50,493 bases of DNA, from the IMG/VR virus record IMGVR_UViG_3300035661_000090, positions 1 to 50,493 of that record; one strand, 5' to 3'. The notes below the pieces were generated by a model. The model was not told the origin of the DNA and searched no databases. It was given only the letters and a program-made list of their open reading frames with translations. Made by a program: the position numbers and the translations under genes. Below, piece by piece: positions 5,567 to 50,493 of this stretch (its first letter is position 1; each line of letters begins with the position of its first letter). Origin of the DNA: a virus (taxonomy: Duplodnaviria; Caudoviricetes).

Positions 5567-5648
5567 CCTTGTACGAGTAGACGGAATCTCATAACCTTAG
5601 GCGAGCGGCTTTGCTCGGGTCGCTGGCCTTGCGATGCGTGTGACGTGG

Positions 5649-5690
5649 ACGCCCTTAGGTGTGAAAGCATCTAAGGGCGTTTCTTATTTA
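5649..5690 (+). terminator. Rho-independent terminator preceding repeat copy 1
   Basis: ACGCCCTTAGGTG/CATCTAAGGGCGT stem followed by TTCTTATTT. Confidence 0.75.
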
Positions 5691-5897
5691 CATATGATCG
5701 ACGAGCAGAGATGTTTACGCTTTATCTTGGGTGTACGCTCGTGCACGAAAAACGTCGCAAAAAACAATCCGAAAAATACAGAAAAAATATCGCCGCACTA
5801 TTTACACGCAAAACTAACATCGGTAGTATAACTATCGTAGTTAGTCGATGCGACTAGCGACAACGATCAAAACTAAGCGAACGGAACACGACCATGA
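5676..5897 (+). repeat. ~222-bp direct repeat, copy 1 (terminator tail + promoter + leader to ATG)
   Basis: Near-identical to 7949-8171 from GGCGTTTCTTATTTAC to GAACACGACCATGA. Confidence 0.95.
5801..5829 (+). promoter_or_regulatory. Sigma70-like early promoter
   Basis: TTTACA-17bp-TAGTAT with an A-tract upstream; TAGTCG-atg-CGACTA inverted repeat at 5842-5856; conserved in copy 2. Confidence 0.75.
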
Positions 5898-6355
5898 GCG
5901 ACAAGATGCGAAGCGTTGCCCTCTTTATCGATGCGATAGAGCAGAACGAGGAGCGAATTGACAACAACGAGAAAAGGAACATGCGGCTTCTCAACGACGC
6001 GATCGAGAGCGATGATCTTTCCTATTACATTCGTACGTATGCCCAACTTGCAGTCGCTGTTAAATCCGAAAAACAAGTTATTAAAACTGTTTACAAGATG
6101 GTGCGAAGCGTTGCCGCCCCGCGAGAAGTCGCGGAAATGCGAATGGTACTGGAAGGGTTCCTCGTCAAGCTACGCAAGCAATTTCAGGAGGCCGCGCGTC
6201 AGTCAGACGAGAATTGGTCGAACGATTACGAGCGTGCCGCTGCGAAAACAAAGCGTAACGTTACCGTTGCGTTATATATTGATCTGATCGAATCCCTGGA
6301 ATTCCTCTGTGCATCAACGATCAAAATCGACGTTGATGAAAATTGGAAATCATAA
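5894..6355 (+). CDS. Hypothetical helical early protein
   Basis: Starts exactly at the end of the promoter repeat. Confidence 0.8.
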   Translation: MSDKMRSVALFIDAIEQNEERIDNNEKRNMRLLNDAIESDDLSYYIRTYAQLAVAVKSEKQVIKTVYKMVRSVAAPREVAEMRMVLEGFLVKLRKQFQEAARQSDENWSNDYERAAAKTKRNVTVALYIDLIESLEFLCASTIKIDVDENWKS

Positions 6356-6364
6356 CGGGCGTTG

Positions 6365-6419
6365 CCCGTCCGCCCCTGAGTCGGGGGCGCTGATGAGTCG
6401 CAACGAGCGACGAAACGGG
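6365..6419 (+). ncRNA. Hammerhead ribozyme, type III (predicted cleavage after GUC at 6370)
   Basis: Stem III CCCGU(6365-69)/ACGGG(6415-19); C6370; stem I CGCCCC/GGGGCG; core CUGAUGA(6390-96); stem II GUCGC/GCGAC; GAAA(6412-15). Intergenic. Confidence 0.92.
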
Positions 6420-6456
6420 AATAGACCAACGTCAACGCAACGCGGAGAACACGAGC

Positions 6457-7470
6457 ATGGCACACGACTTGAACATTGAAAACGGCCGGGCGTCGATGGC
6501 GTACGTACGCGGTGAAGGCGCACCCTGGCACGCTCTGGGGCAAGCGGTCGAATCGGCCATGACGTGGGAAGAGGCGTACGTTCAAGGCGGACTTGACTGG
6601 AACGTTGATCGGGTCAAGATGCAAACAGTCGGCGAGTATCGTTACGCGATACCCAACCGCGTTGCGCTCGTTCGCTCCGACACGAAAGCGGTTCTAGGTA
6701 CTGTCTCGTCGCAGTATATCCCGATCCAGAATCATGAGGCGTTCGGCTTGCTCGACTCGCTCGTGGCCGACGCGGGATTGCGCTATCACACCGTTGGAGC
6801 GCTGGGCAAGGGTGAGATCATTTGGTTGCTCGCGAAAGTTCCTGATCCCATCGTGATCAAAGATGTCGATGTTGTCGAAAAATATCTCCTTTTGACGAAT
6901 CAATTCAACGCGAAACGAGCGATGCGAATCATCTGGACGCCGACGCGCGTCGTTTGCCAGAACACGCTCAACCGCGCTCTTCAGGAGGGGCATAGTTCGG
7001 GGGTTGCGATTCGTCACCGTGGCGACATCGCTGCACAATTCAAAGAAGCACGACAGATTCTCGGGCTGGCGAATCGCTACTTTGATTCCTTTGAGGACTC
7101 AATCAACAAGCTCGCAAATCACTACCCGAAAAAAACGCAGCTAGACAAATTTTTCAAAACGCTCTACCCGGACCCGAAGGACAAGAAAGACGGCACGACG
7201 TCGCTGGGAACGAAAGCGCAAAACACGCGGGACATTTTGTTCGGTCTATTCGAGAACGGGATCGGCAACGACATGCCCGAGATTCGCTACAGCACTTGGG
7301 CGGCCTATAACGCGGTGACTGAGTACGTTGACCGTCATCGCGCTCGCAAGAGCGGCGAGACGACACGCCAGCAGGACGCCAATTCCTTAAAGTCCTCGTG
7401 GCTCGGCTCGGGAGCGAAAATCAAGGAATCAGCGTATAAAGGCGCGTTAGCAATGGCGGGCGTCAACTGA
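6457..7470 (+). CDS. DUF932 / TIGR03299-type phage-plasmid protein
   Basis: MAH...PWHALG...LDWNV...YIPIQNHEAF...TPTRVVCQNTL...TWAAYNAVTEYVD family motifs. Confidence 0.85.
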   Translation: MAHDLNIENGRASMAYVRGEGAPWHALGQAVESAMTWEEAYVQGGLDWNVDRVKMQTVGEYRYAIPNRVALVRSDTKAVLGTVSSQYIPIQNHEAFGLLDSLVADAGLRYHTVGALGKGEIIWLLAKVPDPIVIKDVDVVEKYLLLTNQFNAKRAMRIIWTPTRVVCQNTLNRALQEGHSSGVAIRHRGDIAAQFKEARQILGLANRYFDSFEDSINKLANHYPKKTQLDKFFKTLYPDPKDKKDGTTSLGTKAQNTRDILFGLFENGIGNDMPEIRYSTWAAYNAVTEYVDRHRARKSGETTRQQDANSLKSSWLGSGAKIKESAYKGALAMAGVN

Positions 7471-7531
7471 TCGATCGACGACCAGGCGGGTCGACGTTCG
7501 GCCCGCCGACGTTTTTACGAGGGAGAGCGCC

Positions 7532-7873
7532 ATGAGTCCCATAGAGCAAATGCACGACGAAATCATCAACAAGCAATTGCTCGCCGAGATGCGAATTGCC
7601 GCCAGTCGCGACGTTATCGGCAGCCTCGTCGACCTGACGCTCGAAGGTTCCCGACGGATCGTCACGACGAAACAAGGCGTCAGGATCGGCGCAATCGAGC
7701 CAAGGAGTCTGGGCCAATACTGGGCCGTTCTCTTCGAGTCGTCGACAACATTGGCCAAAAGTCGTCGTGAGCCGATTGCAGAGCGACTCGGTACGTACGG
7801 CACGATCGAGGATGCGGCCACGGCGATAATCACCAGCTCACTTTGTCGCTACGGCGAATCCATCAGCTTGTAA
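7532..7873 (+). CDS. Hypothetical early protein
   Basis: GGGAGAG RBS; fills the cassette before the terminator. Confidence 0.7.
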   Translation: MSPIEQMHDEIINKQLLAEMRIAASRDVIGSLVDLTLEGSRRIVTTKQGVRIGAIEPRSLGQYWAVLFESSTTLAKSRREPIAERLGTYGTIEDAATAIITSSLCRYGESISL

Positions 7874-7920
7874 GCACATAACGGAAACTGACACGCGTTG
7901 CGAGCAATCGCAACGACGTG

Positions 7921-7962
7921 GCCGGGCTCGCCAGACGTCGGCGGGCTCGGCGTTTCTTATTT
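7921..7962 (+). terminator. Rho-independent terminator preceding repeat copy 2
   Basis: GCCGGGCTCGCC/GGCGGGCTCGGC stem (with G-U pairs) followed by GTTTCTTATTT. Confidence 0.7.
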
Positions 7963-8171
7963 ACATATGATCGACGAGTAGAGATGTTTACGCTTTATCT
8001 TGGGTGTACGCTCGTGCACGAAAAACGTCGCAAAAAATAATCCGAAAAAATACAGAAAAAATATCGCCGCGATATTTACACGCGAAACTAACATCGTTAG
8101 TATAAGGATCGTAGTTAGTCGATGCGACTAGCGACAACGATCAAAACTAAGCGAAGGGAACACGACCATGA
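7949..8171 (+). repeat. ~222-bp direct repeat, copy 2, with promoter TTTACA-17bp-TAGTAT
   Basis: Near-identical to 5676-5897. Confidence 0.95.
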
Positions 8172-8467
8172 AAACGATCAAAACGCAACGAACGGATCGC
8201 GAAAAGTCGCACCTGAGCAACGCCTCCGTAGCGACGGCAATCATGATCCGAAAACATGCCAACGACTCGATGCGAGCAGATGGCTACCGCGTCGAGGTAG
8301 AGGCGCTTATCGGCGACAAATGGATAAGACATCACGAGCTTGAGGGATCGGATCGCATCGAGTCTTGGAGGTTTTTCGACACGACAGGTCGTCGAGGGAA
8401 AGAATTCACGACAATCGGCGAGATGGAAGCGGAGCGTGACCTGTGGATACAAACACTCCGGAGTTGA
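8168..8467 (+). CDS. Hypothetical early protein
   Basis: ATG at the same repeat position as the ATG at 5894. Confidence 0.8.
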   Translation: MKTIKTQRTDREKSHLSNASVATAIMIRKHANDSMRADGYRVEVEALIGDKWIRHHELEGSDRIESWRFFDTTGRRGKEFTTIGEMEAERDLWIQTLRS

Positions 8468-44160: not shown

Positions 44161-45105
44161 ATGCGGCGAGACAATCAACTCCCGGATCATTATCGATTCG
44201 CAATCGTTCCCTTGTCGATCCTTCGCAACGAGGAGGCAAGCGATCGGGCTAAATTACTTTATTCGATTGTGATTGCCACGTCGTTTACCGACGGCGTTTG
44301 CGTGCTGTCAAACGCTCAACTCGGCGACCTAATTGGTGGGCGTCACTCGTCGCGAATCAGCGCTATATTGAGTGAGCTTGTTGATCTCAAATGGTTGACG
44401 ATCTCATATCGGTCGACGGACTCGGCAACTCGCGAGCTTATCCCGTTGGTGGTCGCTGCCGGAACGACTCATGCCGCCAGCCCCTCGCGAAAATGCGATA
44501 CCCCCCCTCGCGAAAATGCGATACCCCCCCTCGCGAAAATGCGATACCCCCCCTCGCGAAAATGCGATACCCCCCCTCGCGAAAATGCGATACCCCCACA
44601 CAATATAGAACGCGCCCGCGAATTAGATTTCGATTTAGATACGAAAGAACGAAAGAAAAATATATATCCGCTCGGTGCTTCGGAGCGATCGCCCAACGCA
44701 ATTGGATCCGAACGACTCGAAGCAATTCGCAAGGCGTGTTCACTTGCCGAGACGTTGCTACCGCTTCGGGATGATATCGTAAAAATCGTCCGCGAAAATT
44801 TCCTTCGACTCGACCCGCTTTGGTATCGTGTCGCAGTCATGCGATTGAGCGAGCAATCGCGAGAAAAACAAACCTCGGCCTATTTCAAAGGCATGTTGAA
44901 AAATATGCTCACGGCGGGCGGTCCGACCGCGAAAGATTTCGCCGACGAGGAATTGCTTTGGCTCGTGTCGTTGCCTGCGAACGAGCAAGCGGAAGTGCGA
45001 GAACGCAAAGCAGCGGCGACCGTAGCAACGCAAGCGTCCGCAATCGAGGCGGCGAAGAAACGCTCACGGGAATACGCGGAGAGTTTGAAAGGCGGAATCA
45101 AATGA
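44161..45105 (+). CDS. Replication initiator (lambda O-like layout: N-terminal wHTH, internal iterons)
   Basis: SDRAKLLY...SNAQLGDLIG..SSRISAILSELVDLKWL HTH; internal repeats followed by an AT-rich tract. Confidence 0.85.
   Translation: MRRDNQLPDHYRFAIVPLSILRNEEASDRAKLLYSIVIATSFTDGVCVLSNAQLGDLIGGRHSSRISAILSELVDLKWLTISYRSTDSATRELIPLVVAAGTTHAASPSRKCDTPPRENAIPPLAKMRYPPSRKCDTPPRENAIPPHNIERARELDFDLDTKERKKNIYPLGASERSPNAIGSERLEAIRKACSLAETLLPLRDDIVKIVRENFLRLDPLWYRVAVMRLSEQSREKQTSAYFKGMLKNMLTAGGPTAKDFADEELLWLVSLPANEQAEVRERKAAATVATQASAIEAAKKRSREYAESLKGGIK
44481..44597 (+). repeat. Five iterons with 23-bp period (C7-TCGCGAAAATGCGATA), putative replication origin
   Basis: Cores at 44485, 44508, 44531, 44554, 44577; AT-rich 44620-44670 follows. 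Confidence 0.9.
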
Positions 45106-50331: not shown

Positions 50332-50493
50332 ATGAGCATATACAAGAATAACGGCGAGATTATCTACGAATCGGACCAGCCGACTCGCCAGGCATTACTC
50401 GAAGCTATCGCCATAGGTGCCGATCTCAGACGTGCTGATCTCAGAGATGCCGATCTCAGAGATGCCAGGTCTGGTGGTTTAGCCATTGCCGCA
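50332..50493 (+). CDS. 5' part of the pentapeptide-repeat gene (wraps to base 1)
   Basis: MSIYKNNGEIIYESDQPTRQALLEAIAIG-ADLRR-ADLRD-ADLRD-ARSGGLAIAA. Confidence 0.85.
   Translation, partial: MSIYKNNGEIIYESDQPTRQALLEAIAIGADLRRADLRDADLRDARSGGLAIAA
50406..50493 (+). repeat. Terminal overlap with the window start (circular closure)
   Basis: 50406-50459 = bases 1-54; the final 45 nt = bases 404-448. Confidence 0.9.

Follow-up and report, generated by a model that had tools for sequence, protein, structure and literature searches.

The window, i.e., the whole 50,493-base stretch of DNA that we analyzed, which is a complete, linear virus record from IMG/VR (CheckV 100%), encodes at positions 6365–6419 (+ strand) what is, judged by its sequence, a genuine type III hammerhead ribozyme, with stem III open, and its self-cleavage is predicted. 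We consider it probable (about 0.7) that this ribozyme serves as a self-cleaving intercistronic mRNA processing site, which would give both of the messages that flank it separate, structured ends. By the same kind of evidence it is one ordinary example from a family of phage hammerheads that is very large and poorly annotated. Phage and prophage hammerheads have been known since 2010–2011 and nothing here is new in kind; what this locus offers is a compact test case, with one ribozyme, one apparent promoter-to-terminator unit and two cistrons. A 2019 review describes the roles of hammerheads in bacteria as "largely elusive" (PMC6765202). The competitor hairpin that we describe below makes the case apt for asking whether such ribozymes are constitutive mRNA "punctuation" or a conditional switch.

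Architecture of the ribozyme

The motif opens with the 5′ strand of stem III, CCCGU (6365–6369), followed by C17 (6370), a placement on which the sequence, the descriptor match, the fold and the covariance model agree, and the predicted scission falls at the GUC site after C6370, i.e., between 6370 and 6371. Stem I is a hairpin at 6371–6389 with six pairs (CGCCCC at 6371–6376 with GGGGCG at 6384–6389) and the loop UGAGUCG; it can be extended by a U-G and a G-C pair to eight pairs around the loop AGU, and its pair probability is 0.86–1.0 in ensemble folds. The core segment CUGAUGA (C3–A9) follows at 6390–6396, and after it the stem II hairpin at 6397–6411 (GUCGC at 6397–6401 with GCGAC at 6407–6411, loop AACGA), which begins with the pair G10.1–C11.1 and which, like stem I, is recovered by both the descriptor and the fold. 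The second core segment, GAA (G12–A14; 6412–6414), leads into the 3′ strand of stem III, ACGGG (6415–6419); both of these, like CUGAUGA, are read from the sequence and matched by the descriptor, and all parts lie on the + strand.

Using the core-nucleotide criteria for hammerhead membership given in the methods of PMC3088659, we found every core position to be as expected, namely C3, U4, G5, A6, N7, G8 and A9, G12, A13 and A14, the pair A15.1–U16.1, and H17, which is C6370. Stem III consists of five Watson-Crick pairs, A15.1–U16.1 (A6415–U6369) included, and the pairs flanking the core are free of mispairs (C6371–G6389 at 1.1–2.1, G6397–C6411 at 10.1–11.1 and C6416–G6368 at 15.2–16.2). Stems I and II are closed by loops and stem III is open at both RNA ends, which is the type III permutation. 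This bears out the earlier note on this DNA, which had reported all core nucleotides, a GUC site and three perfect stems, each of which is present where that note had placed it. When the 55-mer is folded in isolation, its minimum free energy structure is exactly the three-way junction described above (−26.9 kcal/mol, z −2.78). A descriptor with the full core and with stems of at least four (I), three (II) and four (III) pairs, run over both strands of the window, matched one site, 6365–6419 (+), and a relaxed type III motif occurred in none of 400 dinucleotide-preserving shuffles of the window, again with both strands searched; the motif is not a chance occurrence.

A covarying family of phage type III hammerheads

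We searched IMG/VR viral contigs with the pattern CCGUC..CUGAUGAG..CGAAACGG, in which the spacers were free and no pairing was required in stems I or II, and it matched at least 119 loci that share the window's type III layout. Our pair counter found a stem I of at least four pairs in 132 of 134 instances among the matches listed. An alignment of the window with 98 distinct instances (99 sequences), drawn from the matches listed, pairs in 96.9% of its cells under the hammerhead structure, compared to 70.5% after column shuffling and 31–48% with slid partners; pairing cells make up 98.5% of stem I and 99.5% of stem II in these 99 sequences. Among these listed matches, changes on both sides were seen in 10 of 15 pairs, including all six of stem I and three of the four of stem II, while pairs 2–5 of stem III, being fixed by the search pattern, were unable to covary. 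A covariance model (R2) built from the 98 family sequences, with the window left out, scores the window at 56.6 bits (E about 2e-12), part of which is built in, since 21 of the approximately 51 model positions were fixed by a search pattern derived from the window. This places the window inside the range of the family members themselves, which among the matches listed score 33.9–73.3 bits with the model.

The model found 155 matches in 100 loci, among the family loci in the matches listed, and by our own count of these about 30 of the 100 loci carry 2–5 copies on one strand; the window has one, with no second copy found by R2. For example, the loci L071, L062, L110, L122 and L126, together with others, carry four or five type III hammerheads on one strand within a few kb, punctuating runs of small ORFs. 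An earlier viral scan, keyed on stem II of the window, had returned mostly type I hammerheads, with a single type III example (L020). The loci L002–L048 from the viral contigs show that many type I phage hammerheads located just after stop codons have a GUCGC/GCGAC stem II, in most cases with a UGAAAAUU loop.

The family, which we know as roughly 49-nt type III hammerheads recovered from IMG/VR, shares with the window a constant order of parts, i.e., stop codon, hairpin, CCGUC, stem I, CUGAUGA, stem II and GAAACGG (L049–L166, L020 and the marine loci L169–L175). Among the matches listed, stem I has 6–7 bp with a loop that begins with U, and about 24 nt with a ribosome binding site (RBS) precede the start codon, in the same layout as in the window. 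Most family members differ from the window in having a 4-bp stem II with the loop AAAA, GAAA or AAGA, and among those listed the window is most like a G+C-rich subset (L020, L051, L056 and L059) with a 5-bp stem II and a loop II of 5–6 nt. Most of the listed members also have a hairpin that abuts stem III, whereas that of the window overlaps it. The identification of the motif as a type III hammerhead in the earlier note is therefore well founded, in that the sequence passes at every sequence-level criterion and belongs to a large, covarying phage family whose members occupy similar intergenic slots.

The loops are consistent with this assignment. Natural hammerheads are described by Dufour et al. 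as having loop 1 of the form UNmYN and loop 2 of the form RNnA (PMC2632901), and in the window loop 1, UGAGUCG, fits UNmYN with m = 4 and loop 2, AACGA, fits RNnA with n = 3. Since both motifs are fitted, the remark in the earlier note on the first base of loop I (U) and the last base of loop II (A), as expected for the loop-loop tertiary contact, was sound. In the family, the loop 1 motif is present in 70 of 99 sequences, the loop 2 motif in 72 of 99 and both in 59 of 99, as counted among the matches listed with a simple stem-extension rule.

Scores with curated models

The earlier note had proposed an Infernal search with Rfam Hammerhead_3 (RF00008) as a check, and this did not confirm the motif, the score being 17.4 bits against a gathering threshold of 48.5, which is a curated detection cut-off and not a biochemical criterion. 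The whole window gave no match to Rfam 15 at gathering thresholds. With the same cut-offs, none of the hammerheads in 14 family loci was detected, which traces the low score to the Rfam model and not to the sequence. Since these curated cut-offs miss the class, it goes unannotated in phages, cultured T7-like phages included.

In E-value mode, the best Rfam match was to Hammerhead_II, at 20.3 bits (cut-off 37), with an alignment at 6348–6406 that takes the upstream hairpin as a closed stem III. A type II hammerhead in this register, which is the one that Rfam prefers, is practically out of the question: A6352 and U6353 stand where G12 and A13 are needed, so that two essential core bases are wrong, and the 3′ strand of stem II is absent downstream, whereas the core of the type III register is perfect. 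We rejected the type II register for the two wrong bases.

A conserved gene layout and a companion hairpin

We examined the neighborhood of the family members using crude ORF calls. The ribozyme is preceded by a same-strand ORF in 113 of 120 instances, at a median distance of 28 nt from the end of that ORF, and followed by one in 108 of 120, with a median of 24 nt to its start, in both cases with the window included and among the matches listed. Of the 108 downstream proteins, 106 were scanned with Pfam, i.e., all but that of the window and a duplicate frame, and of these listed neighbors 103 have no family and none contains DUF932, the domain encoded downstream of the ribozyme in the window; the ribozyme is thus not tied to DUF932.

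Almost every ribozyme of the family is accompanied by a hairpin just upstream of the cut. When the final 45 nt of the predicted 5′ product were folded, −12 kcal/mol or below was reached in 94% of 117 instances (median −17.3) among the matches listed, whereas the same value is reached by 15% of random windows (n = 346) and, in 708 other co-directional intergenic gaps, by 15% with a fixed window and 57% with the best window. The companion helix ends 0–6 nt from the cut in 109 of 119 listed instances, and for 71 of 113 the position of its 5′ base is −3 to +12 nt relative to the stop codon. These hairpins are not intrinsic terminators, since their sequences differ widely and they have no U-tract. 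The near-constancy of a hairpin at the new 3′ end points to end protection as the selected function. We found no literature on a hairpin-plus-hammerhead module or on a demonstrated function for one in phages, and supplementary alignments, e.g., that of PMC3088659, may contain the class.

The window conforms to this hairpin–ribozyme–RBS layout, with the stop codon 9 nt before the ribozyme, the end of the hairpin at −1 and the start codon 37 nt after the ribozyme.

Genes and signals around the ribozyme

The ORFs of the record are mostly on the + strand, with small non-structural genes (nuclease-like, DUF932 and DNA methyltransferase) in the first approximately 15 kb and the terminase, portal and capsid genes from 15.9 kb onward. 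The ribozyme lies in a 101-nt gap and is co-oriented with the genes on both sides. Upstream is ORF153 (5894–6355, + strand, 153 aa, stop codon TAA at 6353–6355), for which we found no Pfam, PHROG or NCBIfam match. Downstream, 6457–7470 (+) encodes a 337-aa DUF932/TIGR03299 phage/plasmid-like protein (Pfam PF06067, 2.5e-55; phrog_1221; TIGR03299, 243 bits), with a Shine-Dalgarno-like GGAG, read from the sequence, at 6444–6447 (+), 9 nt before the ATG. It is followed by ORF113 (7532–7873, +, 113 aa), which has no family match. The distance of 86 nt given in the earlier note, from the cut after 6370 to the ATG at 6457, is correct. That note had also placed the motif "between early genes", and its intergenic position stands; "early" would follow solely from the position in the non-structural left arm.

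A consensus scan identified a promoter-like site, TTTACA-17-TAGTAT, at 5801–5829 (+), whose function is putative, and a signal scan identified a terminator-like hairpin after the DUF932 gene (7485–7507, +) and a strong one of 12 pairs with a T-rich tail at 7921–7951 (+), the likely end of the unit. These signals suggest that 5801–7951 is one promoter-to-terminator unit of about 2.1 kb, and because they are consensus matches, with promoter and terminator matches no commoner in the window than in shuffles, we treat this unit, and with it the transcript boundaries, as putative. Since the two genes are co-oriented inside this apparent single unit, the predicted cleavage would split the two cistrons, in agreement with the statement in the earlier note that cleavage separates the first cistron from the DUF932 message.

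The promoter-like site is part of a direct repeat of approximately 220 bp, present at 5676–5897 and 7949–8171 (91–98% identical), so that an identical second copy of the site is found at 8075–8103. The repeat copies share the promoter-like site, a 5′ UTR and an RBS, one of them preceding ORF153 and the other a 99-aa ORF (8168–8467), and each is preceded by a different terminator-like hairpin (5647–5682 and 7921–7951). The two copies bracket the ribozyme cassette.

Relatives of the locus itself were not recovered. A near-relative DNA search of 5800–7600 against cultured phages, in distant mode, gave no match, and orthologous loci sought through the DUF932 protein gave 10 pattern matches in viral contigs and 232 in metagenome contigs, none of which was confirmed as an orthologous locus. 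A tblastn search of three proteins of the window against all the loci collected here found one distant DUF932 relative, in L100 (24.7% identity), which is not beside the L100 hammerhead. In cultured phages, DUF932 is present in 499 records, all below 60% identity, with the best 25 of the 499 at 30–35%. A search of sequencing runs located the stretch in four DNA runs, which are perhaps its source; no RNA run was among the holders.

Repeats occur elsewhere in the window. A 15-nt tandem array with the unit AGGTGCCGATCTCAG occupies the left end (10–421; 27.5 copies, 82% matches), and the same unit recurs in a shifted register at the right end (50418–50466; 3.3 copies). The array appears to run across both ends of the record, which fits a circularly permuted or circular assembly; it might consist of iterons or encode a repeat protein with a period of five codons. 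At 44481–44597, a 23-nt unit is repeated perfectly in tandem (5.1 copies, 100% identity), in what has the appearance of an iteron or binding-site array.

A hairpin that competes with stem III

Overlooked in the earlier note was a 6-bp hairpin, ACGGGC-GUU-GCCCGU, at 6355–6369 (+), which is recovered by our folds (−9.4 kcal/mol alone) and whose first base is the last base of the ORF153 stop codon. Its 3′ arm contains the CCCGU that forms the 5′ strand of stem III, so only one of these two helices can form at a time. When longer stretches are folded, the minimum-energy structure contains the hairpin, and nearest-neighbor ensembles, which have no tertiary term, give pair probabilities of 0.83–1.0 for the hairpin and at most 0.01 for stem III; constrained ensembles, likewise with no tertiary term, favor the hairpin by 1.6, 2.8 or 5.0 kcal/mol, the value varying with the stretch folded. 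An estimate that the hammerhead lies only 1.0 kcal/mol above the minimum, obtained from minimum-energy folds with four pairs enforced, was set aside as context-dependent, the ensembles giving 1.6–5.0 kcal/mol. Because the predicted ensemble favors the competing hairpin, cleavage may be slow or conditional in the window. As modeled, the hairpin probably reduces the share of molecules in the active fold before the cut and ties up the stem III strand after it; with this strand captured, the cut would be irreversible.

A full overlap of hairpin and stem III, with different sequences, is also present among the matches listed in L020 (two copies), L151, L135, L060 and L078, with an energy gap of 7.7–11.8 kcal/mol, and likewise in the metagenome relatives of L020 (L169–L175). 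In the family more broadly, 82 of 119 listed instances have a hammerhead fold that lies no more than 2 kcal/mol above the minimum. L020 and L169–L175 are marine contigs with two hammerheads approximately 550 nt apart, in which the upstream hairpin spans the whole of CCGUC through C17, and the relatives of L020 keep this hairpin together with a different, still paired, stem I.

When 6300–6470 was folded with the hammerhead constrained, CAACGUC at 6427–6433 (+) could pair with GGCGUUG at 6358–6364. This pairing, which is mutually exclusive with the upstream hairpin, would add seven pairs to stem III across a 7-nt bulge, and is a possible second state.

Discussion

The processing that we propose would begin with a transcript from the promoter-like site at 5801–5829 that runs through ORF153, the ribozyme, the DUF932 gene and ORF113 to the hairpin at 7921–7951. 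Once the three-way junction had formed, the 2′-OH of C6370 would attack its own 3′ phosphate, yielding a 5′ piece of approximately 0.5 kb with ORF153 and a 3′ piece of approximately 1.6 kb with the DUF932 gene and ORF113. The upstream RNA would end in ACGGGC-GUU-GCCCGU-C with a 2′,3′-cyclic phosphate, i.e., in a hairpin with a one-base overhang, and the 5′-OH of the downstream RNA would adjoin the stem I hairpin directly, with the stem II hairpin next, then approximately 37 unstructured nt with GGAG, and the ATG. If, as we infer, catalysis takes place in vivo, the two messages would gain independent, structure-protected ends, and their stability and translation would be uncoupled. The stabilizing effect of such ends is extrapolated from general knowledge of bacterial mRNA decay.

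The exclusive pairing of hairpin 6355–6369 and stem III, with the hairpin favored by 1.6–5.0 kcal/mol, also suits a gated ribozyme, in which the hairpin holds the stem III strand so that the ribozyme stays inactive unless the hairpin is opened. Opening could come from a ribosome that terminates at the ORF153 stop codon (6353–6355), or from the pairing of 6358–6364 with 6427–6433, and cleavage would then report ORF153 translation or be tuned to a partial level. The recurrence of full overlap in L020, L151, L135, L060, L078 and L169–L175 and the location of the hairpin within −3 to +12 nt of the stop codon in 71 of 113 listed instances favor such gating, and regulated cleavage of phage hammerheads is raised by Perreault et al. 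(PMC3088659). Nevertheless, we regard gating as unlikely, in that the hairpin leaves the stem III core free of overlap in most of the family members listed and the hammerhead fold is close to the minimum (within 2 kcal/mol) in 82 of 119; compact phage genomes would equally explain the closeness of stop codon and hairpin, which is the same in competing and non-competing cases, and even a minor active fraction would cleave to completion if the products separate. The specific proposal of a two-state hairpin–ribozyme device, in which ORF153 translation or the alternative pairing licenses self-cleavage and an independent DUF932 message, strikes us as decidedly unlikely; if it were true, the overlap seen in unrelated phages (L020 and its marine relatives, L151 and L135) would represent a recurrent, translation-coupled ribozyme switch.

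The cut could instead be a down-regulator, with the 5′-OH marking the DUF932 message for decay, as with glmS and RNase J1, or with ORF153 losing a downstream stabilizer. The glmS ribozyme provides a precedent, described in the 2019 review (PMC6765202), and a host with an RNase J-type enzyme is possible for this phage, yet we think this very improbable: the layout looks built to preserve both products, since the 5′-OH sits directly on an 8-bp hairpin and in the family, among the matches listed, the RBS spacer is short (median 24 nt) and open and the 5′ product bears a protective hairpin. There is still less to be said for an inactive relic or look-alike that fits the consensus and does not cleave in the native transcript. 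Its score below the Rfam cut-offs, a predicted ensemble that disfavors the active fold, the single copy and the failure of our scans of viral and metagenome contigs to find an orthologue speak for such a relic; against this, Rfam also misses all hammerheads in 14 family loci, the motif is found in 0 of 400 shuffles, the core has no deviation or adjacent mispair, both loop motifs are present, and the score is mid-range among the listed members of a family with covarying stems. We therefore hold inactivity to be a slim prospect and retain intercistronic processing as the preferred reading.

Comparison with known systems

Processing of this kind has been proposed before. Perreault et al. (2011; PMC3088659) report that hammerheads of each type (I, II and III) are common among bacteria and prophages. 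Those of prophages, again of every type, flank genes and cleave in vitro and in E. coli, and the authors propose that they process long phage transcripts. The neighboring genes of prophage hammerheads are not constant in that account (Perreault et al., PMC3088659), and the same is true of the family described here. The window shares with the bacterial and phage type III hammerheads (PMC3088659; RF00008, clan CL00010) the core, the permutation and the co-directional intergenic slot. It differs from the RF00008 hammerheads in its score (17.4 bits, cut-off 48.5), in its compact 55 nt and in a hairpin that shares five bases with stem III, and from known type III hammerheads in being a single copy that is not clustered and in having DUF932 as a neighbor, a domain found in 0 of 106 listed family neighbors.

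The early genes of phage T7 are separated by RNase III cuts, and this intercistronic cut in a long early message gives the upstream mRNA a hairpin at its 3′ end. The likeness is one of function only, with the window as a host-independent counterpart in which the RNA would cut itself. A substrate for RNase III, i.e., a double-stranded hairpin of approximately 20 bp or more, is absent at the site in the window, where the only additional hairpin has 6 bp, and the ends would differ too, with a predicted 2′,3′-cyclic phosphate and 5′-OH in the window versus the 3′-OH and 5′-phosphate left by RNase III. In synthetic insulators of the RiboJ type, a hammerhead is placed in the 5′ UTR, and its self-cleavage standardizes the downstream 5′ end and removes the upstream context. 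The ribozyme in the window differs from these in being natural, in that it would also shape the 3′ end of an upstream cistron, and in having no engineered hairpin 3′ of the ribozyme.

Counterparts are present in two cultured T7-like phages (Autographiviridae), where we identified unannotated type III hammerheads in intergenic gaps, in slots comparable to that in the window. Mycobacterium phage jiawei (OR464703.1; L177, 485–540) has a copy scoring 37.4 bits that shares the stem I arms of the window, contains one additional U between A9 and G10.1 and runs right up to the annotated ATG, and Rhizobium phage vB_RleA_TRX32-1 (MW023914.1; L178, 1447–1524 and 792–843) scores 23.2 bits, with a 47-nt insertion in stem I. 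The occurrence of these hammerheads in comparable slots in cultured phages adds weight to the reading of the ribozyme in the window as an intercistronic processing site.
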